Below, piece by piece: positions 24,085 to 53,604 of a stretch of DNA of 64,000 nucleotides (positions are counted from its first letter, which is position 1; each line of letters opens with the position of its first letter). The notes below the pieces were generated by a model. That model searched no databases. It was given only the letters and a program-made list of their open reading frames with translations, and was not told the DNA's origin. The DNA lies in the NCBI RefSeq assembly GCF_009931435.1, contig NZ_CP043414.1; one strand, 5' to 3'. Both the position numbers and the translations under genes were made by a program. The DNA is from Escherichia coli. Its GTDB lineage: Bacteria; Pseudomonadota; Gammaproteobacteria; Enterobacterales; Enterobacteriaceae.

Positions 24085-25290
24085 TTACGCCGCCTTACGG
24101 GCGCGTCCTTTACGGACTGACGGCAATATTTGTCCTGCCGCCATGACTTCAAAACCTGCTGTTAATATATTGCGAGCGCCGTTTACATCGGCGTTTGCCG
24201 TATAGCCGCACGCGGTACAGATAAAGCTCGCCTGCGTCCTGCGGTTATTTTTCGATGTATGCCCACAACATGCGCATTTCTGACTGGTGTACGCCGGATT
24301 AATCGCCAGCACATCACCGCCGCGCCATGCCTGCTTATATTCGAGCTGGCGGCGCATTTCTGCCCAGCCCTGATCCAGTATCGCCCGGTTAAGACCTGAT
24401 TTTGCCGCGACGTTGCGCCCCGGCTGGTCTACCGTACCCACTGCTGATTTTGACATGTTCGAAACCTTTAAATCCTCAATGACTATCATCGCGTGGTTTT
24501 TGCTGATCGTCGTCGTGGTTTTATGAAGGTAATCGCGGCGGATGTTTGCGATATGAGAGTGGAAACGGGAAATCTTCGCTTTCTGCTTTTTCCAGTTGGC
24601 GGAGAATTTAACCATCCGGGCCAGACGGCGCTGTAAGCGAGCCAGCTTATCCTGATTTTTTTTAAAGCTGTTTACCGGTTCAAAGACCGTGCCGTCTGAA
24701 AGTGTTGCCAGCTTTGTTATACCTGCATCCAGGCCTATTGCGCTGGTCGATGCGTGAATCGGATCGGTAACAGCTAATTCGACCTGAAAAGACACATACC
24801 AGTGTCCGGCATGCTGGCTGATGGTGCAATTTTTAATGACGCCTTCAATCTTCCGGGACTGACGAAATTTAACCCAGCCCAGTCCTGACGGGAGTTTCAC
24901 ACGGCCATAATCCAGCCCACAATATTTGCTGAAATTGACGAACCGGATAGAGTCGCAGCCTTTGGTTTTCTTTTTGAAAACGGGCTTTTCAGCCGTCAGG
25001 GATTTATCAAAACAGCGATCCCATGCGCTCCGCAGGTCTTTCAGTTTCTGCTGGAGGTTGTCAGTGTAACCCTCAGCAAGAAAGGCCAGCTCAGGGAGTT
25101 TTTTCCAGCCCGTAAGTCGTTTATTCAGGTCGAAAGCTGACAGAATTTTTCCGCCCGCGTCATGAATGCTCAGTGTTTCATTCAGTGCATAGTTCCAGAC
25201 AAAGCGAGCGCAACCGCACAACTGACGCAACCTTTGCGCCTGCTGGTCAGTGGGGTAGAGCCTGTATTTATATGCTTTCTGGATTAACAT
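24085..25290 (-). CDS. tnpB: TnpB (IS605 OrfB family, RuvC-like RNA-guided endonuclease)
   Basis: ORF track 24085..25353; likely start MLIQKAYKYRLYPTDQQ at 25290; RuvC motifs GLDAGI, IEDL, C-x2-C...C-x2-C zinc finger CACCGH...CTACGY, DVNGARNI. Confidence 0.85.
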   Translation of the reverse strand: MLIQKAYKYRLYPTDQQAQRLRQLCGCARFVWNYALNETLSIHDAGGKILSAFDLNKRLTGWKKLPELAFLAEGYTDNLQQKLKDLRSAWDRCFDKSLTAEKPVFKKKTKGCDSIRFVNFSKYCGLDYGRVKLPSGLGWVKFRQSRKIEGVIKNCTISQHAGHWYVSFQVELAVTDPIHASTSAIGLDAGITKLATLSDGTVFEPVNSFKKNQDKLARLQRRLARMVKFSANWKKQKAKISRFHSHIANIRRDYLHKTTTTISKNHAMIVIEDLKVSNMSKSAVGTVDQPGRNVAAKSGLNRAILDQGWAEMRRQLEYKQAWRGGDVLAINPAYTSQKCACCGHTSKNNRRTQASFICTACGYTANADVNGARNILTAGFEVMAAGQILPSVRKGRARKAA

Positions 25291-25356
25291 TTTGCATTCA
25301 GTATGTGGTTGTTTAGAATGTACAATATATCCACATTTTTTTGGGAGGGTCAATAC

Positions 25357-25755
25357 GTGTGCGAAATCAATCGTTCACGCTATTCAGCTTACCTGTTGCA
25401 TGTTCACGTTGTTTTTATGACAAAATACCGCCGTCCAGTTTTTGGTGAATTGCATCATGCAAACATGCGTCAGTATGTAGCGGAGGTATGCGCGGACTTT
25501 GGCGCCGAGTTAAAGGAATGTGACGGCGAGGCAGATCATGTTCACATGCTGATTGAATACCCACCGTTGGTGCAACTCACAAAGCTGGTAAACAGCCTTA
25601 AGTCCGTTACCAGTAGGCGGCTGCGGAATGATTTTATTGATTTGCGCGCCGCGTATTCAAAGCCCGTACTCTGGTCACGCTCTTATTTCATCGGTTCATG
25701 TGGTGGAGCACCGCTGGAAGTTGTGAAAAAGTATATTCAGAATCAGCGTGGCTGA
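25357..25755 (+). CDS. tnpA: IS200-type Y1 (HuH) transposase TnpA
   Basis: ORF track 25303..25755; probable GTG start 25357 after gggaggg SD; HuH motif HVHMLI and catalytic Tyr in SRSYFIGS. Confidence 0.8.
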   Translation: MCEINRSRYSAYLLHVHVVFMTKYRRPVFGELHHANMRQYVAEVCADFGAELKECDGEADHVHMLIEYPPLVQLTKLVNSLKSVTSRRLRNDFIDLRAAYSKPVLWSRSYFIGSCGGAPLEVVKKYIQNQRG

Positions 25756-31471: not shown

Positions 31472-31564
31472 CCGGAAAGCGGTTCACAGATCTCGCTTCG
31501 AACCAGGCAGGCCTATTGACGCTGTTGTTTTTTCAACCTAAAGTAAAGGAACAAGGGTAAGGGA

Positions 31565-31700
31565 GGATTTCTCCCCCCTCTGAATTGGTTGTTAGTAAGT
31601 CGGGAAACTTAACAGTAACAACACAATCAGTATGATGACGAACTTCATCATAACCCTTTCCTTATACAAGGCCCCTTCCTCGGGAGGGGCTTTCCCGTTT
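31565..31700 (+). ncRNA. sib: Sib-type antisense sRNA overlapping ibs (antitoxin); ends approximate
   Basis: Inferred from ibs position; GC hairpin ccccttcc tc gggagggg plus ctttcccgttt at 31669..31700 as plus-strand terminator. Confidence 0.45.
31592..31651 (-). CDS. ibs: Ibs-family type I toxin, 19-aa hydrophobic peptide MMKFVIILIVLLLLSFPTY
   Basis: Read from minus strand: ATG ATG AAG TTC ... TAC TAA with aaggaaaggg SD; close resemblance to K-12 Ibs peptides (from memory). Confidence 0.7.
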   Translation of the reverse strand: MMKFVIILIVLLLLSFPTY

Positions 31701-31889
31701 CAGCCCCTTGCTGACTACCCGATTGTTGATGAGCGCCAGACCCCGCGCAATGCTTTCTCTTATGCAGTTTTCTCTTCCCCGAGTTGGCTCGCAAAACGCT
31801 GTAACAACCTGATCATTTGTACTTTTTAGCGGAACGCAGATATAAAAAATCCCCGGCTTTTTGGGCCAGGGATGTTCATAGTTGAAAAT

Positions 31890-33551
31890 TTATTCTATGT
31901 TTTCTGCGACGGGAGTTGTTGAGGTTAAGGGTGAAGTCAATGCCGCTAGCGAGCCGCCTGAAACACCGATTTCATTGAGTAAGGAGTCAATCAGCGGTGC
32001 CTGTGTGCGATAAGAAAGCGCGGCTGATAACGCTTGTTCCGCCAGATTTCCTCCACCAACGCTACCTGATATTGCATCCCCTGCGGTACCACCACGGTTC
32101 AGACCATCGACCTGAATAATCTTAATACCGTCGATAGACTTCATTGGTTCCACAGATTTCTCAATTACCGCAGGGAGCGCCTGCAACAATGCCAGTTTGA
32201 ATTTAAGGCTGGTTTGCTCGTCAGAAAGTACGTTGATAGCATCGTTCAGCGCACGTTGCGCTTCTGCTTCCGCCAGGCCTTTTTTACGCGTAGCTTCGGC
32301 TAACTCAACGATCGCCGCCGCCTGCATCTCTGCGGCTTCTTTTTCTGCTTTCGCCCGCACGGTCAGTTCAACCGCTTTGGTTTCTGCATCCTGCGCGGCA
32401 GCGATTAGGGCAACTTGTTTAGCACGATCGGCTTCTGCGGTCTGGCGAGTGGTTTCTACGTTTTGCTGGGCGCTTACCGCTTCTGCAAGTGCAAGGTTGG
32501 CACGCGCTTCCGCTTGTGACTGCTGTTCCGATTTGGCGGCAATAGCGATCGATTTCGTCTGGTTGGCGATTTCGGTGACCTGCTGCTGTTCGATCTCTTT
32601 AATGCGAACTTCACGTTCAGCTTCAACTTTTCTGGAACGGACGGCCTGTTCGCGGTCGATTTCCGTTTCCTGAATCTGTCGTTCAGCCAGAATTCGCGTC
32701 TGCTCTGCTTCCCGACGACGCTCGGCCTCAAAAGCCGCAATTTTCGCATTCTGCTCAGCGGTACGGGTTTTAACCTGCTGCTCCTGCTCAAGCGTCATAA
32801 ACGCTTCTTGCTGTTCAATCTCCAGCTTCCGCGATAGCGCATCACGGTTTTTCTCACGCACCGCAACTTCTACATCTTGTTCAACTTCGTTACGTTCGCG
32901 GCGACGGCGCTCCGTCTCCTGCGTCAGCTTGGTTAAACCTTCGGCGTCAAAGGCGTTGTTAGGATTGAAATGTTCTTTCGACGTCTGGTTAAAGTTGGTA
33001 AGTGAAACGCTTTCCAGTTCCAGGCCGTTTTTCGACAGATCTTCAGCAACGGTATTTTGTACGCCCTGCACGAAGTTCTCGCGGGTATCCTGTAACTCAT
33101 GCATGGTCATTTGTGCAGCTGTTGCACGGAGGGCATCGACAAATTTATCTTCAACCAACATACGTAAGTCTTCAGGCGACAGGGTGCGTTGCCCCAGCGT
33201 CTGGGCGGCGGTGGCAATACCTTCCACTGACGGTTTTACCCGCACAAAGAAAGCGACAACGACATCGACGCGCATACGATCTTTCGTAATCAGGCTATCA
33301 ATGGTTGAGCGGCTGACTTCCAGCTTCAGAGTATTCATATTGATGGGGATTATTTCATGAAAGATCGGCATCACGATTGCGCCACCGCTCATTACCACTT
33401 TTTGCCCACCTAAACCAGTACGAACAAAAGCTTGCTCTGCCGAAGCGCGACGATAGAGCCTGGCGAAAATAATTCCAATAATAAACAGAATGCATACGGC
33501 AATAATTGCGGTAAACATCCAGGAGGGCACAGAATTAACAATATCATCCAT
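31890..33551 (-). CDS. yqiK: SPFH/band-7 (flotillin-like) membrane protein
   Basis: ORF track 553 aa; N-terminal TM plus long coiled-coil. Confidence 0.85.
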   Translation of the reverse strand: MDDIVNSVPSWMFTAIIAVCILFIIGIIFARLYRRASAEQAFVRTGLGGQKVVMSGGAIVMPIFHEIIPINMNTLKLEVSRSTIDSLITKDRMRVDVVVAFFVRVKPSVEGIATAAQTLGQRTLSPEDLRMLVEDKFVDALRATAAQMTMHELQDTRENFVQGVQNTVAEDLSKNGLELESVSLTNFNQTSKEHFNPNNAFDAEGLTKLTQETERRRRERNEVEQDVEVAVREKNRDALSRKLEIEQQEAFMTLEQEQQVKTRTAEQNAKIAAFEAERRREAEQTRILAERQIQETEIDREQAVRSRKVEAEREVRIKEIEQQQVTEIANQTKSIAIAAKSEQQSQAEARANLALAEAVSAQQNVETTRQTAEADRAKQVALIAAAQDAETKAVELTVRAKAEKEAAEMQAAAIVELAEATRKKGLAEAEAQRALNDAINVLSDEQTSLKFKLALLQALPAVIEKSVEPMKSIDGIKIIQVDGLNRGGTAGDAISGSVGGGNLAEQALSAALSYRTQAPLIDSLLNEIGVSGGSLAALTSPLTSTTPVAENIE

Positions 33552-33577: not shown

Positions 33578-34207
33578 TTACAATATCTGGGGCCAGGGAT
33601 TGTTTTCCGCCAAATATCGCGTTGCAGAAAGTCGGCAAATAATTAACACTTTGTCTCCTTTAGTGAAAATTTTTCCTTCTTCAGGCTCTAGTAGTAAATA
33701 ATGTATTTGGCCAAATTGATCGGTGAGTTTTCCTTCGCAGGGATTACCTGAAGTGGCCTGATGACCGGTAATGAACGCCATGCTACCAATATATTCTTCT
33801 TCTGTAATAGCTGAACTATGGTCGCGTGGAATCCAGGGCGCAACTATTTTACCGGTATAATGCACCGCAATAATCGTAAACAGTAAACTGACAGGAGCCA
33901 CGAACAGGTTCGAGAGTGGTGATTGCCAAACCATGATGCAGGCATGCTGCAACAGGATGCCAATAAGACCAAAAAAACCAGCCAGTAAACAGAGAACGAC
34001 GAGAGCTGGCAATCTTCCGATATTGAGATAATGAAGTGCCTGGCTAATATGACCTGTGGTTATGGAATCATAATGGTCAAGATGTGCATCAAGAGCACCG
34101 GAGAGCATGTGACCGCAGATAAGCGCAAAAATTTCTAAAAGGCCGATCAACAGTACAAAGGAAATAGCGAAAAGATAAGGGGTGTTATAGTCGGCGAATA
34201 AAATCAT
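33578..34207 (-). CDS. yqiJ: NfeD-like inner-membrane protein, partner of YqiK
   Basis: ORF track 209 aa polytopic membrane protein upstream of yqiK. Confidence 0.8.
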
Positions 34208-34475: not shown

Positions 34476-34676
34476 ATGGATCATAGTCTTAATTCTTTAA
34501 ATAATTTCGATTTCCTGGCGCGTAGTTTTGCCAGAATGCACGCAGAAGGTCGCCCGGTCGATATTCTAGCCGTTACTGGTAACATGGATGAAGAACATAG
34601 AACCTGGTTTTGCGCACGTTATGCCTGGTATTGCCAACAGATGATGCAAACCAGAGAACTGGAATTAGAACATTGA
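34476..34676 (+). CDS. glgS: Glycogen synthesis / surface-composition regulator
   Basis: ORF track 34470..34676; [25 protein letters not shown] from ATG 34476 with ggagg SD. Confidence 0.9.
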
Positions 34677-34680
34677 TATT

Positions 34681-34703
34681 ACGGGCCGTCTGGCCCGTTT
34701 TTG
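34681..34703 (+). terminator. Rho-independent terminator of glgS
   Basis: acgggccgtctggcccg followed by ttttt. Confidence 0.65.
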
Positions 34704-34710
34704 TGGTGCT

Positions 34711-35010
34711 TTATTCTGCTTTATCAACCGGCGGGATAGCCGGAGGAGATTGAAGTTCTGCTACCGGATTATTGCGCGCTTCCAGTTCGCTGATGCGTTG
34801 TTCCAGTAACGCCAGTTTTTCACGAGTCCGTAACAGGACTTGCGTCTGAACGTCGAATTCTTCGCGGCTTACCAGATCGAGACGCGTCAACTGCGCTTGT
34901 AGGGTTTGGCGGATTTTTTTCTCCACATCTTCCCCGAACTCCCTGATTCCTTTAGGCATTGATTCGTGAACCTGGCGAGCGATTTGCTCAATTTTTTTCG
35001 GGTCAATCAT
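34711..35010 (-). CDS. ubiK: Ubiquinone biosynthesis accessory factor UbiK
   Basis: ORF track 34711..35070; likely start [21 protein letters not shown] at 35010. Confidence 0.85.
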
Positions 35011-35129: not shown

Positions 35130-35383
35130 CCGCTTATTCTCAGGGCGGGGCGAAATTCCCCACCGGCGGTAAATCAACTCAGTTGAAAGCCCGCGAGCGC
35201 TTTGGGTGCGAACTCAAAGGACAGCAGATCCGGTGTAATTCCGGGGCCGACGGTTAGAGTCCGGATGGGAGAGAGTAACGATTCTGTCGGGCATGGACCC
35301 GCTCACGTTATTTTGGCTATATGCCGCCACTCCTAAGACTGCCCTGATTCTGGTAACCATAATTTTAGTGAGGTTTTTTTACC
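35130..35383 (+). ncRNA. FMN riboswitch (RFN element) in ribB leader
   Basis: Conserved RFN segments gcttattctcagggcggggcgaaattccccaccggcggtaaa ... ccggggccgacggttagagtccggatgggagagagtaacg; downstream hairpin and T-run. Confidence 0.85.
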
Positions 35384-36037
35384 ATGAATCAGACGCTACT
35401 TTCCTCTTTTGGTACGCCTTTCGAACGTGTTGAAAATGCACTGGCTGCGCTGCGTGAAGGACGCGGTGTAATGGTGCTTGATGATGAAGACCGTGAAAAC
35501 GAAGGCGATATGATCTTCCCGGCAGAAACCATGACCGTTGAGCAGATGGCGCTGACCATTCGCCACGGTAGCGGTATTGTTTGCCTGTGCATCACTGAAG
35601 ATCGCCGTAAACAACTCGATCTGCCAATGATGGTAGAAAATAACACCAGCGCCTATGGCACCGGTTTTACCGTGACCATTGAAGCGGCTGAAGGGGTGAC
35701 TACCGGTGTTTCTGCCGCTGACCGTATTACGACCGTTCGTGCTGCGATTGCCGATGGCGCTAAACCTTCTGATCTGAATCGTCCTGGCCACGTTTTCCCA
35801 CTGCGCGCGCAGGCGGGTGGTGTGCTGACGCGTGGCGGCCATACCGAAGCGACTATTGATCTGATGACGCTGGCAGGCTTTAAACCAGCTGGTGTGTTGT
35901 GTGAGCTGACTAATGACGATGGCACGATGGCGCGTGCGCCAGAGTGCATTGAGTTTGCCAAGAAACACAATATGGCGCTCGTGACTATTGAAGACCTGGT
36001 GGCATACCGTCAGGCACATGAGCGTAAAGCTAGCTGA
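35384..36037 (+). CDS. ribB: 3,4-dihydroxy-2-butanone 4-phosphate synthase
   Basis: ORF track 217 aa [42 protein letters not shown]. Confidence 0.95.
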
Positions 36038-36299
36038 AAACCGCTGCTTAATTTACCGCGTTAATCAAGAAACCGAAGCTATTACTGGCTTCGGTTTTTA
36101 TTTTGCTCTTGTTATGCAAGATGTTAATTCCTCTTCTCTTTCTATGAGAAAATTTCATTAATATCAGGCATTCTTTTCCATTATGATCAAAATCATATAA
36201 TTGTTCCGTTATTATGCGACCATATGAATATATCCGAAAAAGGATATGTGAATTTTATGCGCTAAATGTTTAGTATTGTTAAATATTAAGGGTAAAAGG

Positions 36300-46410: not shown

Positions 46411-48552
46411 TCAAAATTCCATTTTCACCGTGAATTGCACTTCACGAGGATCGCCAATCTGGTTGCCCAGATTATTTGTGGCGATGGAAGAGGTGTAATA
46501 CGTTTTATCAAACAGGTTTTTGACGTTTAATTGCAGTGTGACCGGATACTGCAATTTCATTTTGTATGCGGCGAAGGCATCGGCAACAAAATAGCCTGGC
46601 AGATAATAGTCAGCCCCATTGGTTGCCGAACGACGGCTTACACCATGTCCACCACCGCCAAACGTCAGTGTGTTATTGCCTGGCATGTTATGAATATCAT
46701 AGGTCAGGAATAGCGAACCGGTATGACGAGGAACATTCGGCAATGGTTTCCCTGCATAATCAGGATCCTCCAGAACCTTAGCATCGGTATAGCCGTAGCT
46801 GGCAATGATATTAATGTTTTCAGTTAATGCTCCCGCAAGGTCGACTTCTACCCCTCTTGAACGAACACGGCCTGCCGTTTTGGCAATGGTTTCATCACCA
46901 ACACTTTCGGTATACAACACATTACGTTTATGGATATCAAACAGCGCAATATCTGCGGTGATACCATCGAATAGCTCGAATTTTGCCCCGACTTCGTAAG
47001 CATTAGATGATTCTGGTGGTAGATCGCCAATGTAGCTGGCAATTGACGATTGCGGCATAAATGTTTGCGAATAATTGGCAAATAAGGATACCGATGGCGT
47101 CAGTTTGTAGACCAATCCCAGTTTGGGAGTCCATTGTTCATCGCGGCTGTCAGTATTGACATTAAAAGGACGGCCTTTACCCGCATACTGCGTGTAATAC
47201 TGATAGCGGAGCCCGGCGACGGCAATCCAGTTATCGGTCAGATAGAGTGCATCCTGTGCATAAGCTGAGTAGCTCTCCTGTTTGATCGTCTGATCACTGT
47301 CCGACGCCGAGACCGTTGTGCATTTGCTGGTATTGCCATAAACAGGGTTGTAGATATTGAAATCTTTAGCTTTTTTACAGCGAATCATATCTGTGCGCAG
47401 AAGATCATAATATTCATATGACACCCCACCCAGAATCTCATTATAGAATCCAGCAACATCAACATTCCCTTGCAGATCCGCACGAGTAGCATGCATACGC
47501 TGGGTAGATCCTTGAGTTGCATCAACACGCCGTGTCAGCGTTCCTGTCGTTGCATCATACGCGGTAACACGCGCCTGATTATCGCTGTATTTATCCTGGC
47601 TGTAGCTGTAATCAAAGCGCGCTGTCCACTGGCTATTGAGATGATATTCTGCGTTGAGTTGCGCCAGATCGGACTGACCATCTGTAATATTAAACGGTTC
47701 GTCAAAACGTATTTTTCGATCAACGTTTACGGGCTGTTTCGTCGTAAGGTCGAAAATCGTTCCACGATCGAACGGAGTTTTATAGTCCCGATGGGAATAG
47801 AGCATGGTTACTGTTGCATTATCACCAAACCAGGTGAGTGACGGGGCAATAAATGTACTGCGCTCTTTACCGAAGTTTCGCCAGTAATCTTCATCCTGCA
47901 CTTCCCCGGTAAGGCGATACGCCAGCTGAGTGCCTTCAATGGGACCTGTGATATCCAATTGCCCAGTGCCTCCGCCAAAACTGGAGGAAGTGGCTGAGAC
48001 AGTACCATGGAATGTTTTTTCCGGGCGCTTTGTCACGACGTTAATCAGTCCGCCAGGATCGAGAATGCCATACAGCGTGGAGGCCGGACCTTTTAGCACT
48101 TCCACACGTTCTGTGGCGGCGTTGAAACTGCGAGGAAGTACAGTTCGCAGGCCGTTGGTCATGATGGAGCCATCCCGGTTAGCACCAAACCCACGACGTA
48201 CAAAAGCATCCTGAGTCCCGCCTAATGTATTGGTCTGTACCACGTTACTGACGTTATAAAGTGCCTCATCCAGCGTCGTCGCATTCTGATTTTCCAGAAC
48301 TTGATCGCTAACCGTATTGACCACCTGCGGGATATCCAGCATCGGCATATCGGTTAATGTCGCCGTGGAGGTGCTCAGAGGTTGATAACCATCGGTCGCC
48401 TCAGTTGCGGTATTTGCATCCGCTGTAACAGTGATTGTTTCGCCATCTTTGGTCGTTACAGTGTCGGTTGCATGAATCATCGGTGCTGCAAAGAGCAGTG
48501 AAAAGAGCGCTCGACCTTTGAGTCCTGAGAATGAAGGTGTGAACATAGCCAT
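46411..48552 (-). CDS. TonB-dependent outer-membrane receptor (siderophore-type)
   Basis: ORF track 713 aa; signal peptide, TonB box ETITVTA, plug domain, C-terminal aromatic residue (FTVKMEF). Confidence 0.85.
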   Translation of the reverse strand: MAMFTPSFSGLKGRALFSLLFAAPMIHATDTVTTKDGETITVTADANTATEATDGYQPLSTSTATLTDMPMLDIPQVVNTVSDQVLENQNATTLDEALYNVSNVVQTNTLGGTQDAFVRRGFGANRDGSIMTNGLRTVLPRSFNAATERVEVLKGPASTLYGILDPGGLINVVTKRPEKTFHGTVSATSSSFGGGTGQLDITGPIEGTQLAYRLTGEVQDEDYWRNFGKERSTFIAPSLTWFGDNATVTMLYSHRDYKTPFDRGTIFDLTTKQPVNVDRKIRFDEPFNITDGQSDLAQLNAEYHLNSQWTARFDYSYSQDKYSDNQARVTAYDATTGTLTRRVDATQGSTQRMHATRADLQGNVDVAGFYNEILGGVSYEYYDLLRTDMIRCKKAKDFNIYNPVYGNTSKCTTVSASDSDQTIKQESYSAYAQDALYLTDNWIAVAGLRYQYYTQYAGKGRPFNVNTDSRDEQWTPKLGLVYKLTPSVSLFANYSQTFMPQSSIASYIGDLPPESSNAYEVGAKFELFDGITADIALFDIHKRNVLYTESVGDETIAKTAGRVRSRGVEVDLAGALTENINIIASYGYTDAKVLEDPDYAGKPLPNVPRHTGSLFLTYDIHNMPGNNTLTFGGGGHGVSRRSATNGADYYLPGYFVADAFAAYKMKLQYPVTLQLNVKNLFDKTYYTSSIATNNLGNQIGDPREVQFTVKMEF

Positions 48553-48650
48553 TTAGTCTGTTATCCCAAAAACTCGCGGATTGTCGCGAGTGAAAATTGT
48601 TTCTTATTGCTCACTAAGCACTATCCGTTTGTTATTTCGCCATCGGATAT

Positions 48651-48669
48651 GTAATTGAGAATCATTCAA
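48651..48669. promoter_or_regulatory. Candidate Fur box in the receptor/ABC divergent control region
   Basis: gtaattgagaatcattcaa, about 12/19 match to Fur consensus, core GAGAATCATT. Confidence 0.35.
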
Positions 48670-48925
48670 TCACGCGGTAATGTAGTAGTAAATGAGAAAT
48701 AACAAAAAATTGCTACATGTGTTTTTATGAAAGGTTTATACAATTTAATTGTTTTTAATTTATTAATATTTAATGTTTTTATTTTTATGTGCAAAAATAT
48801 TTTACCTGTTATTTACCTTGTTTTTGTGTGGCTTTTAACTGCTTGACTACTACATTTTGTGGCATCAAACTCTCAAAGGAGAATGAGTTTTATTTTTGTT
48901 TGTCTTTGATTAAGTTGGCGTACAC

Positions 48926-49735
48926 GTGGCACATAACGCAAAAGGGCAGGGGCTGATCCTCGACAATGTTTCTGCCGGGTATCACAAGAAAATCATTGTT
49001 GATGGTGTTTCTTTCTCCGTTCCCACAGAAAAAATGACCGTTCTGGTTGGGGCAAACGGCTGTGGAAAGTCGACGCTGCTCAGCACCATTGCTCGTATCT
49101 TGCATCCCATGGGCGGTTCGATATTGCTTGATGGCAACGCGATTCACGAGCAACCAACGAAAGCGTTATCCCGTAGACTTGGGATCTTGCCGCAGTCGCC
49201 ATTATTGCCGGAGGGCTTAACCGTTTATGAACTGGTGTCGCGTGGGCGTTTTCCCTGGCAGAATTTCATTCGTCAATGGAGCGACGCCGATGAGCTGGCG
49301 GTAGAAGAGGCCCTGAAATTAACGGGTACGCAGGAGTTTGCACATTTACCTGTTGAAAAACTCTCTGGTGGGCAGCGCCAGCGTTGCTGGATTGCGATGG
49401 TGTTGGCGCAAAAGACGCCTTATATCCTGCTGGATGAACCCACAACCTGGCTTGATTTACGTTATCAGGTTGAAATTCTTGAGTTATTACATGATTTAAC
49501 GCGTCATCACGGGCGTACAGTCGTCGTGGTGTTGCATGATCTGAATTTTGCCGTCAATTATGGCGATACGTTGATATTTTTACGCCAGGGGAAAGTGGTG
49601 CGTGTGTTGAATGAGGGGGAGCATTGCACGCCTGAGCTGGTAAAAGCGGTCTTTGACGTTGATGTTCACGCATCAATAAATCCTCTGACGGGAAAGCCGT
49701 TCTTCATGCCGTTTCGTGGTGTAGAAAAAGTATGA
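48926..49735 (+). CDS. Iron-siderophore ABC transporter ATP-binding protein (FecE/FepC-like)
   Basis: ORF track 269 aa; Walker A GANGCGKST, signature LSGGQRQR, Walker B ILLDEP; GTG start with weak SD. Confidence 0.85.
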   Translation: MAHNAKGQGLILDNVSAGYHKKIIVDGVSFSVPTEKMTVLVGANGCGKSTLLSTIARILHPMGGSILLDGNAIHEQPTKALSRRLGILPQSPLLPEGLTVYELVSRGRFPWQNFIRQWSDADELAVEEALKLTGTQEFAHLPVEKLSGGQRQRCWIAMVLAQKTPYILLDEPTTWLDLRYQVEILELLHDLTRHHGRTVVVVLHDLNFAVNYGDTLIFLRQGKVVRVLNEGEHCTPELVKAVFDVDVHASINPLTGKPFFMPFRGVEKV

Positions 49736-50715
49736 TGCGCACAGGGCTGGTTACTGTAATTTTCCTCGCCTTACTGCTGGTGGGATGCGTGGTATATCCA
49801 GGGATTGGTGCCCGATTTATTGCACCACAAACGGTGTTGCAGGCATTTCTTCATTTTGATCTGCAAAACTTCGATCACAACGTAATTGTAAGACTCCGTT
49901 TGCCGCGTTTAGCGGCAGCATTGCTTACCGGTGCTTCTCTTGGCGTTGCTGGTGCTTTGTTGCAGGCTGTCATTCGTAACCCATTGGGGGAGCCACATAT
50001 TTTAGGCTTAAATGCCGGAGCCGCTCTTGCTGTCGTTGCCGCCAGTGCGCTTGGACTGGCCTTTCCGATTGGACGCCCACTGCTGGCATCTACGGGGGGC
50101 GCGTTATTGTTCCTGTTGATATTGCTGCTTTCCTCCGCAGGGCGTTCAGGGTTAACGCCAATGAAAGTTACTTTATGCGGCGTGGCGCTATCGGCGTTCG
50201 TGTCCTCAATAACGGCTGCAATCCTGATTCTTGACGAACAAACACTGCTGGCGATGCGGACATGGCTAGCAGGTGATTTAGCGGGGCAGGATTGGGCGAC
50301 GCTGGGTACGTCCGCCTGGTTTTCTCTGGGGGGATTTGTGTTAGCCCTTTACCTTGCACCCTCCCTTAACATGTTGGCACTGGGCGATCGCATGGCGCAG
50401 GGGCTGGGCGTCTCTGTATTCCGCACGCGAACATTCACCCTGCTTGCGATCGCGTTGCTCTGTGGCGCAGCCGTATCGATTGCTGGCCCCATTGGTTTTG
50501 TCGGCCTGCTAGTACCGCAGATTGTCCGGCGTCTGGTATCAGCGGATCTGCGCGTTCTGCTCCCTCTTTCAGCTTGTGTCGGCGCACTTTTGTTATTACT
50601 GGCAGATATTATTGCCCGTACGCTTTTCACGCCCCATGAGTTAGCGACCGGTGTCATGACGGCGTTAGTTGGTGCGCCTGTTTTTGTCATTATGGCGACG
50701 AGGATGTTCAAATGA
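49732..50715 (+). CDS. ABC transporter permease (FecCD family)
   Basis: ORF track 327 aa polytopic; overlaps neighbours by 4 nt. Confidence 0.85.
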   Translation: MMRTGLVTVIFLALLLVGCVVYPGIGARFIAPQTVLQAFLHFDLQNFDHNVIVRLRLPRLAAALLTGASLGVAGALLQAVIRNPLGEPHILGLNAGAALAVVAASALGLAFPIGRPLLASTGGALLFLLILLLSSAGRSGLTPMKVTLCGVALSAFVSSITAAILILDEQTLLAMRTWLAGDLAGQDWATLGTSAWFSLGGFVLALYLAPSLNMLALGDRMAQGLGVSVFRTRTFTLLAIALLCGAAVSIAGPIGFVGLLVPQIVRRLVSADLRVLLPLSACVGALLLLLADIIARTLFTPHELATGVMTALVGAPVFVIMATRMFK

Positions 50716-51761
50716 GTCGGATAATGAACGTCGGGCTACGCCCACTACGTGTTGGTAAGTTTTCGACACTGGTACGCCCTAAAAATCTGCTGTTGCTTGG
50801 TGGGCTGTTCCTGCTTGCGGTTGGAATACTGATATTCGGTCTGATGCAGGGTTCTTTCTCTGTTCCGGCATCGGAAGTAGGACGAGCGTTGTTTGCTCCA
50901 GAAAACGTAAGCACAGACGCACGTTATATTGTGCAGGATATTCGCTTGCCGAGAGTCATCATGGCATTGCTATGCGGGGCCATGTTAGGTATGGCAGGGG
51001 CCGCAATGCAATCCATTGCACGTAACGGCCTTGCCGATCCTGGTTTAATCGGCGTCAAAGAAGGATGTAGCGTGGCTGTGCTGTGGCTGATTTTCCAGTT
51101 TCCAATGCTGGGAATGTTCTGGCGTCCAGTGGCTGGTCTTGCTGGCGGCCTGTTGGTGGCTTTAATCGTGATTTTTTGTGCGCGCGATATTTCCCGCCCG
51201 CGATTTGTTCTGATTGGTATTGGTGTTTCCTGGTTTTTCGCCGCCGGTATCGGTGTATTTATGACCACTGCAGATGTTCGAGATGTACAAACTGCATTGA
51301 TGTGGTTATCGGGAAGCCTGCATGCAGCTAACTGGATGTTAGTCGGTATTTCAGCCTGTTGGATGTTGCCAGCCGCTCTTTTATTGCTGTTCACCGCCAG
51401 GACGGCGGATATCGCTCTGCTTGGTCATCAGGTGGCAACCGGGTTAGGCGTGAATAGTTCTCGCCTGGCGTTGTTACGTGTCGCCGCACCCATAATCCTG
51501 ACAGCCGTCTGCGTTTCGTGTGTTGGTAACATAGGTTTTGTCGGATTGATAGCACCCCATATATCACGTTTTATTCTACGTGGCGGGCAGACGACATTAC
51601 TGCTGGGGAGCGCGGTATCGGGGGCGTTGTTAGTTATTCTGGCGGATAGCATTGGTCGTTTGGCTTTTTTGCCTTTGCAACTGCCTGCCGGAATCATTAT
51701 CTCACTGATTGGTGGACCATTTTTTTTGCTACTGCTCTGGCAGCGCAGGAACAGTTTTTAA
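50712..51761 (+). CDS. ABC transporter permease (FecCD family), second subunit
   Basis: ORF track 349 aa polytopic. Confidence 0.85.
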   Translation: MSRIMNVGLRPLRVGKFSTLVRPKNLLLLGGLFLLAVGILIFGLMQGSFSVPASEVGRALFAPENVSTDARYIVQDIRLPRVIMALLCGAMLGMAGAAMQSIARNGLADPGLIGVKEGCSVAVLWLIFQFPMLGMFWRPVAGLAGGLLVALIVIFCARDISRPRFVLIGIGVSWFFAAGIGVFMTTADVRDVQTALMWLSGSLHAANWMLVGISACWMLPAALLLLFTARTADIALLGHQVATGLGVNSSRLALLRVAAPIILTAVCVSCVGNIGFVGLIAPHISRFILRGGQTTLLLGSAVSGALLVILADSIGRLAFLPLQLPAGIIISLIGGPFFLLLLWQRRNSF

Positions 51762-51771
51762 CGGGAGTTAT

Positions 51772-52719
51772 ATGCGTTTATTTTTTTCTCTGCTGATACT
51801 GTTGTCATTTTTTTCCCGTGCAACAGAACCTGTTCAGGTATTTACTGATGATTTAGGGCGCAAAGTCACTGTTCCTGCTCATCCAAAGAGAATTGTCTCT
51901 TTACACGATCTTGATATCACTATTCCTCTGATTGAGCTCGGTGTACCTCCTATCGCCAGCCACGGGCGAACTCGGCCTGACGGTAGCCATTTCATTCGAT
52001 CTGGCGCGTTATTGACAGGTGTCGACTTTGATAATTCATCGATCGCCTTTATTGGTACCGCTGATATTGATATTGAAGCGATTGTGGCGGCAAAGCCTGA
52101 CCTGATCATCACAGAACCGACCCGTAATACGCCCATTGAACAACTTGAAAAAATTGCGCCCACGGTGAGCATTGATCATCTCAAAGGGGGCGCGCCAGAA
52201 ATCTATCGCAAGCTGGCAGAACTTACAGGAACGCAGTCGCAGCTGGCGATACTTGAACGCCGCTATCAGGCACAAATCAATGCGCTGAAGGCGACGCTGG
52301 ACAGCCAAAAAATAACGGTATCGGTGATTCAGGCAAACCAGGGAAAAATTAATGTGATGCATAGCTATCATTCGCTGGGGCGGGTATTACGCGATGCTGG
52401 TTTTCGTTTTCCGCCGCTGATTGAGAGCATTCCTGAAGGTGGGCGAATGGATGTGAGCGCGGAGCGTTTACCTGAACTGGATGCCGATTTTGTTTTTGCA
52501 ACCTGGCGCGGTGACACCGGGGGTAAACCTCAGGATGAGCTGGCAGCAATGGAAAAAGTCATGCCGGGATGGTGTCAGTTTCTGACTGCCTGTCGTTCCG
52601 GGCGTTATGTGCTGATTTCTCGTGAAGAGGCAATTTCTAACTCCTTTGCATCTCTGGGGCTGATGGCTGCGCAGATACAATCACAAATTGCAGGGCGACC
52701 TCTACCGGAGGCTAAATGA
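51772..52719 (+). CDS. Periplasmic siderophore-binding protein (class III, FecB/FhuD-like)
   Basis: ORF track 51709..52719; start MRLFFSLLILLSFFSRA at 51772 with gggag SD; signal peptide. Confidence 0.8.
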   Translation: MRLFFSLLILLSFFSRATEPVQVFTDDLGRKVTVPAHPKRIVSLHDLDITIPLIELGVPPIASHGRTRPDGSHFIRSGALLTGVDFDNSSIAFIGTADIDIEAIVAAKPDLIITEPTRNTPIEQLEKIAPTVSIDHLKGGAPEIYRKLAELTGTQSQLAILERRYQAQINALKATLDSQKITVSVIQANQGKINVMHSYHSLGRVLRDAGFRFPPLIESIPEGGRMDVSAERLPELDADFVFATWRGDTGGKPQDELAAMEKVMPGWCQFLTACRSGRYVLISREEAISNSFASLGLMAAQIQSQIAGRPLPEAK

Positions 52720-53604
52720 TCCAGAAAGATAAAGCGCGGGTTGATATTTTTGGTGAGCGTTTTCGCACTCGCGCGAGTCAGTTAACGCCTGGGTTAAGAG
52801 CTGTCGCCAGCTACATTAATGAGCATCGTGAAGTGGTACTCGAGCAAACGGCGATGGAAATTGCGGCCACGTTGAACACTTCCGATGCCACAGTTATCAG
52901 GGCTATACAGGCCCTGGGGTTTGCCGGGCTGCGTGATCTGAAACGCACTCTGGAACAGTGGCTTGGTCCAGCCCTTAGTTCCAGCGAAAAGATGTCTACG
53001 ACGGTGAGTAACTTGACGAGCGATGTTAACACCGCAATCGACTTTGTTCTTGAAGGGCATTTGTATACCTGTAATGTCCTGTCAGAGCCTGAAAACCGCC
53101 ACGCGCTTGCGCAAGCTGTAGCGTTGTTGGTGCAGGCACGGCAAGTCGCAATTTTTGGCATTGGCGCTTCGGGTATTCTGGCGGACTATACCGCACGACT
53201 ATTCAACCGCATAGGTTTGCCTGCCACGGCACTAAACCGTACGGGTATTGGCCTTGCCGAGCAACTGATCGCGCTTCAACGTGGCGATGTTCTGATCATG
53301 ATGGCGCAAAAATCTGCGCACCGGGAAGGGGTGACAACGCTTCGTGAGGCGAGGCGGCTGGGGAATCCCTGTTATTTTGCTGACAAACGCGCTGGATTCA
53401 CGTTTTAGCAAAGACGCCAGTATCGTGATTCATGTTCCGCGCGGGGATGAAAAAGGGAAAACGCCGCTACATGGTACGGTATTGTTGTGTCTGGAAATGA
53501 TTGTCTGGTCGGTAGCTTCCGCAGTGCCGCAGCGTGCGGTTAAAACCATTAAGCGAATTAACGATTTCCATCGAGGACTGAAAACGGGAAGAAAGAATGG
53601 CTAA
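52716..53604 (+). pseudogene. RpiR/MurR-family regulator (HTH_6 plus SIS domain) interrupted by a +1 frameshift near 53357..53362
   Basis: ORF 52716..53408 ends in NPCYFADKRAGFTF; ORF 53344..53604 in the next frame continues the SIS domain as GIPVILLTNALDSRF...; the two join across a gggg/aa run. Confidence 0.7.

Follow-up and report, generated by a model that had tools for sequence, protein, structure and literature searches.

Two chaperone-usher fimbrial operons of Escherichia coli, Yqi and Yqi-like, have been described as closely related, differently located, mutually exclusive and tied to particular lineages, which for the Yqi-like operons are A, B1, D and E (Wurpel et al. 2013, PMC3559732). 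The K-12-type Yqi-like operon, ygiL-yqiGHI, lies between glgS and ubiK. In MG1655 the order is glgS, yqiI, yqiH, usher, IS2, ygiL, ubiK, with the IS2 copy sitting at the 5′ end of the usher gene. A preliminary description of the E. coli DNA analysed here had given this content for the K-12 interval, and the MG1655 gene order bears it out: glgS and ubiK are not adjacent in that genome. The literature retrieved for yqi together with glgS and fimbria comprised only genomic SELEX and adaptation papers and was uninformative.

In the window, by which we mean the whole 64-kb stretch of DNA that was analysed, glgS directly adjoins ubiK. The two genes are convergent, tail to tail, and the only content of the spacer is one hairpin (Table 1). 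Open reading frames, the short spacer and a terminator scan all agree with the earlier statement that a terminator alone separates the genes. Residues 1-66 of GlgS give a full-length match to Pfam GlgS (E = 1e-45). The product of ubiK is a ubiquinone biosynthesis accessory factor, and Pfam BMFP covers its residues 1-78. The same 34-bp spacing is also annotated in E. coli 2017-02-2CC, 2020CK-00188, B36 and O157:H7 E32511, and the spacer of E. albertii is comparably short. A tblastn search of the entire window with K-12 YgiL, YqiG, YqiH and YqiI as queries returned no match, as expected from the reported absence of ygiL-yqiGHI; the usher, chaperone and subunit or adhesin genes that make up a chaperone-usher operon are all missing from the window. 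The junction had further been called clean. A search of it for remnants by blastn-short (word size 7) with the K-12 and I2 islands recovered only the shared terminator stem, and it has no direct repeat. With neither chaperone-usher genes nor remnants of them between glgS and ubiK, the site is unoccupied.

Table 1. Features in and around the glgS-ubiK junction (positions in the window).
Feature	Position	Strand	Description	Basis
yqiJ	33578-34207	-	left neighbour of glgS	ORF and annotation
glgS	34476-34676	+	66 aa	ORF list, sequence, annotation in matching genomes
glgS-ubiK spacer	34677-34710	none	34 bp between convergent stop codons	sequence
Terminator-like hairpin and T run	34681-34703	+	ACGGGCC-GTCT-GGCCCGT, then TTTTT	terminator scan
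ubiK (yqiC)	35010-34711	-	99 aa	translation, annotation in matching genomes
ubiK C-terminal tail	34711-34779	-	residues 78-99 and stop	K-12 alignment break at ~34781; tails of 19 taxa
ubiK segment adjoining the breakpoint	34782-34881	-	yqi-haplotype substitutions	site-by-site comparison
FMN riboswitch	35132-35280	+	5′ of ribB	Rfam RF00050, 120.9 bits
ribB	35384-36037	+		ORF; annotation in collinear genomes
ribB-yqiD spacer	36036-36181	none	second fimbrial site	B36 alignment gap; E. fergusonii context

The hairpin proper (34681-34698) consists of a 7-bp stem with six G-C pairs and a 4-nt loop. Its plus-strand fold has an energy of −16.1 kcal/mol (z = −3.0), a stability that no shuffled sequence out of 200 reached. 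Both hallmarks of an intrinsic terminator, a GC-rich stem-loop and a U tract behind it, are present on this strand, i.e. on the glgS side, and the hairpin is predicted to be the Rho-independent terminator of glgS. The fold on the minus strand is also stable (z = −3.9). In that direction the sequence after the stem is AAUAUCAAUG (AAUAUCA), which offers no U tract to ubiK, and the scan called no minus-strand terminator at the spacer. A bidirectional intrinsic terminator was therefore rejected, and judged by its sequence the hairpin would serve glgS and not both genes symmetrically. It is also the only structured element that could terminate transcription of ubiK. The motif CGGGCC-N4-GGCCCG is conserved in an alignment of four loci, those of E. 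albertii, Salmonella diarizonae, Citrobacter and E. coli. As the hairpin aligns from Salmonella and Citrobacter to Escherichia, the empty, hairpin-only junction appears to be older than the genus.

The empty junction is not a peculiarity of this strain but one side of a common two-allele polymorphism. Among 5,426 complete E. coli genomes, 2,066 (~38%) matched a 1.2-kb query across the junction in one piece, and the others matched it at two separate places. K-12-like yqiI-yqiH-usher DNA was present in 3,362 of the 5,426, so that the two counts together account for the whole collection. A shorter query of 161 bp, reaching from the end of glgS through the hairpin into the ubiK tail, matched 2,060 genomes, 2,057 of them at nearly full length, and not a single yqi-bearing genome, which amounts to complete linkage. 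Among the empty-site genomes are the listed O157:H7 records, Nissle 1917 and NC101. About nine of the 2,066 contiguous genomes are without the standard junction and depart from both main alleles. In one strain, BS-01 (NZ_CP172816.1, about 3088031-3088104), the match is confined to the glgS half of the junction, and the gene next to it is annotated 'accessory factor UbiK family protein'.

The alleles differ by more than the fimbrial genes. Alignment of the window with K-12 holds through the glgS terminator and resumes at about 34782, which corresponds to codon 77 of ubiK. One correction to the preliminary description concerns the edge of the polymorphism, which is not in the spacer; on the ubiK side it lies inside the gene, between codons 77 and 78. 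The Pfam BMFP domain ends at this breakpoint. In yqi-bearing strains residues 78 to the end of UbiK are replaced, and the window tail has no collinear counterpart there. E. coli thus has two forms of the protein, one of 99 aa with a PPAIPPVD tail in strains without the island and one of 96 aa ending in ETLPPTL in strains with it, again in complete linkage.

We compared two yqi+ alleles (K-12 and I2), four empty E. coli alleles and E. albertii site by site. K-12 and I2 have in common a private block of substitutions at 34634-34702 (glgS 3′ end and terminator) and 34795-34876 (ubiK). The yqi+-specific substitutions hence span the last ~70 bp of glgS plus the terminator, whose loop reads TGAT instead of the GTCT of the empty alleles, and ~95 bp of ubiK. 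Divergence within the block is roughly 12-17% and drops to 0-2% outside it; of the 100 ubiK sites adjoining the breakpoint, 11 differ between K-12 and the window. The last ~45 nt of the window glgS carry the states of the empty haplotype, including Thr58, which is Ala in K-12. At most sites of the block, E. albertii agrees with the empty alleles.

Outgroup genomes point in the same direction. Species-representative genomes were scanned with the window UbiK, which yielded at least 80 loci. Among the matches listed, wherever glgS was present, it was the next gene downstream of ubiK, in the opposite orientation. This adjacency was found in E. albertii, E. fergusonii, S. enterica subsp. diarizonae and arizonae, at least five Citrobacter, Superficieibacter, Pseudocitrobacter, Raoultella and Klebsiella spallanzanii. 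E. albertii, Salmonella and Citrobacter align with the window through the spacer hairpin and the ubiK tail, demonstrating that the flanks are orthologous. The UbiK tail of the window is the conserved enterobacterial type with the PPAIPPVD motif; in a comparison of tails across 19 taxa, the widespread form was ...PAPAIPPVD(P/D)QE. The window-type tail occurs in Salmonella (...KPAPAIPPVDPQE), Citrobacter, Enterobacter, Kosakonia, Leclercia and E. fergusonii, whereas the K-12 tail departs from it. Since outgroup synteny, the spacer hairpin and the conserved UbiK tail all support this reading, the window very probably holds the ancestral, never-occupied allele of the glgS-ubiK interval. We infer that the island was gained in other strains and not lost in the lineage of the window, and the K-12-type operon would have entered part of the E. 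coli population later. The feature as such is an ordinary ancestral allele of an already published presence/absence polymorphism of a fimbrial operon.

A secondary loss could end in the same allele. An ancestor would have carried the Yqi-like operon, and recombination with an empty-site strain would then have restored the ancestral-type allele together with its flanks. Recombination is frequent in E. coli, both alleles are common in the species, so that donors are at hand, and the divergence of the flanks from K-12 is mosaic, ranging from 0 to 19% per 100 bp. However, nothing in the sequence requires such a detour: the empty type extends uniformly over junction and flanks, another empty-site genome is collinear with all 64 kb of the window, and the allele itself would still be ancestral. 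We consider this history unlikely. The complete genomes nearest to the window, R32_14_1F and 2020CK-00188, are collinear with it over the full 64 kb and only 98.7-98.8% identical, indicating that the window derives from a sparsely sampled E. coli lineage.

At the ends of the K-12 island we found no direct repeats or target-site duplications of at least 8 bp; the longest shared word was 7 bp, which is at chance level. An insertion of the transposon or integrase type is therefore unsupported. A tail resembling that of K-12 and of the same length, NRSTVTVVKDDQETLPPTL (NRST...ETLPPTL), is present in a distant enterobacterium (Logan SRR33454298, L087 152-442). This organism is 77-82% identical to Escherichia at the nucleotide level, and its glgS still adjoins ubiK. 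Its tail is 62% identical in nucleotides to that of K-12, compared with 49% between K-12 and the window (window 34711-34779, L001 9941-10000). Apart from this one distant metagenomic relative (P0022/L087), the UbiK protein search returned K-12-type tails only from E. coli and Shigella. Because a K-12-like tail is native to an organism in which glgS adjoins ubiK, the K-12 tail appears to be a foreign ubiK allele. A fusion created de novo by the insertion was rejected on the same grounds. The enterobacterium itself was rejected as donor of the island, as it has the tail type in common with K-12 but not the flank states, five of which are K-12-like and six window-like.

The private flank substitutions of the yqi+ alleles, a foreign tail and the lack of direct repeats at the island ends fit an import by homologous replacement. 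We infer that this is most likely how the island arrived, its donor being diverged and the crossovers falling within glgS (about 34634) and within ubiK (about 34880), and that the replacement would have brought along foreign flanks, including the different C-terminal tail of UbiK. Among the matches listed from the species-representative scan (at least 80 loci), no close yqi operon was situated between ubiK and glgS, and distant yqi-family operons (33-63% amino acid identity) were found only on the ribB side.

In a published model, residue E77 of UbiK, which immediately precedes the exchanged tail, is a contact to UbiJ, and the C-termini of UbiK were treated as flexible (PMC9499169). A functional difference between the two tails is unlikely. 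If they were not equivalent after all, possession of the fimbrial operon would be tied genetically to one allele of an accessory factor of ubiquinone biosynthesis. The broader proposition, in which linkage of the island to the UbiK tails and to GlgS T58A, entry by homologous replacement and, given non-equivalent tails, a coupling of fimbriae to the ubiK allele all come together, strikes us as quite doubtful.

Besides the ancestral empty state, the preliminary description had left room for a precise deletion, and this second option did not stand. A precise or near-precise loss of ygiL-yqiGHI from a K-12-like ancestor would account for a clean junction devoid of fimbrial remnants. Yet the flanks of the yqi haplotype and the K-12 tail would survive such a deletion, and both are absent from the window. 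It is outgroup-like at most diagnostic sites, and the K-12 tail, the TGAT loop and the linked substitutions are all missing. Moreover, the island ends offer no direct repeats of 8 bp or more that could mediate excision, and the 161-bp junction of the window type recurs in 2,057 genomes. A deletion origin is thus highly improbable. That the assembly collapsed or dropped the island deserves hardly any credence, given the identical architecture of about 2,060 complete genomes, including the O157:H7 genome examined, Nissle 1917 and NC101, and a junction sequence orthologous to that of the outgroups.

A related operon, which we take to be the one named Yqi or ExPEC adhesin I, is inserted between ribB and yqiD in E. 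fergusonii and in the B2-type E. coli strain B36. Related chaperone-usher operons at ribB-yqiD were also found in several Citrobacter, Enterobacter, Lelliottia and Klebsiella genomes, and 993 of the 5,426 complete E. coli genomes have the Yqi operon at this position. The alignment of the window with B36 stops at 36035 and resumes at 36182, B36 having 5.5 kb extra; the site is empty in the window. B36 was the one E. coli carrier inspected, and its glgS-ubiK junction belongs to the empty type. The counts would leave about 1,070 complete genomes without either operon, like the O157:H7 genome examined. The distribution of the operons over the two sites agrees with the earlier survey (Wurpel et al. 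2013, PMC3559732). The yqiD region of the Yqi+ haplotype is only about 80% identical to that of the window.

Several other parts of the window vary among strains. Close to the junction, yqiK (31645-33250) is unusually divergent from K-12, the peak being 19 differences per 100 bp at 32045-32144. Because the neighbouring yqiJ and glgS differ from K-12 by only 0-3%, the sequence comparison suggests that yqiK is a recombined or allelic segment. Between hldE and yqiK (31516-31666), the window has a single module of SIB antitoxin RNA and ibs toxin; tandem ibs copies occur at this position elsewhere, two in I2 and three in CFSAN004176. An element of the IS200/IS605 type at 24085-25755, between ygiF and ygiM, comprises tnpA (25303-25755, plus strand) and a TnpB-like ORF (24085-25353, minus strand). 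The annotation of 2020CK-00188, a collinear genome, names the counterpart of this element ISEc41 plus an RNA-guided endonuclease. The region 46411-53600, between parE and ygiN, codes for a TonB-dependent siderophore receptor, a FecCD-type ABC importer and an RpiR-family regulator, and resembles the Fit iron-uptake system. The gene for the substrate-binding protein of this cluster is an open 336-aa ORF in the window and frameshifted in 2020CK-00188. K-12 presumably has nothing inserted between parE and ygiN.

The position of the polymorphism edge within ubiK gives rise to two annotated UbiK forms, of 96 and 99 aa, that track the island. This is relevant when the structure and function of K-12 UbiK are generalised or when the locus is used as a lineage marker. 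In addition, related fimbrial operons occupy two alternative sites, one on each side of ribB-ubiK, and the strain of the window has neither operon.

In comparison with the Yqi-like locus of K-12, the window has the same flanking genes, and K-12 has kept the glgS terminator stem on the glgS side. K-12 differs from the window in carrying ~6.6 kb extra (a 5.3-kb operon plus IS2), in its shorter UbiK with a different tail, and in linked substitutions in both flanks. The Yqi operon that B2-type E. coli and E. fergusonii carry is likewise missing from the window, although its carriers B36 and E. fergusonii have the same empty glgS-ubiK junction. In O157:H7 E32511, the order yqiK-yqiJ-glgS-ubiK-ribB-yqiD-zupT and the spacing of glgS and ubiK are identical to those of the window, both genomes are free of a fimbrial operon at glgS-ubiK and at ribB-yqiD, and the 161-bp junctions diverge by ~6% of their nucleotides. 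The yqiC(ubiK)-glgS pair of Salmonella and Citrobacter is set apart by diverged coding sequences (73-82% amino acid identity in GlgS) and, in S. enterica diarizonae, by a longer spacer of about 80 bp as opposed to 34 bp. Nevertheless, it has the convergent adjacency, the spacer hairpin and the PAPAIPPVD-type UbiK tail in common with the window.
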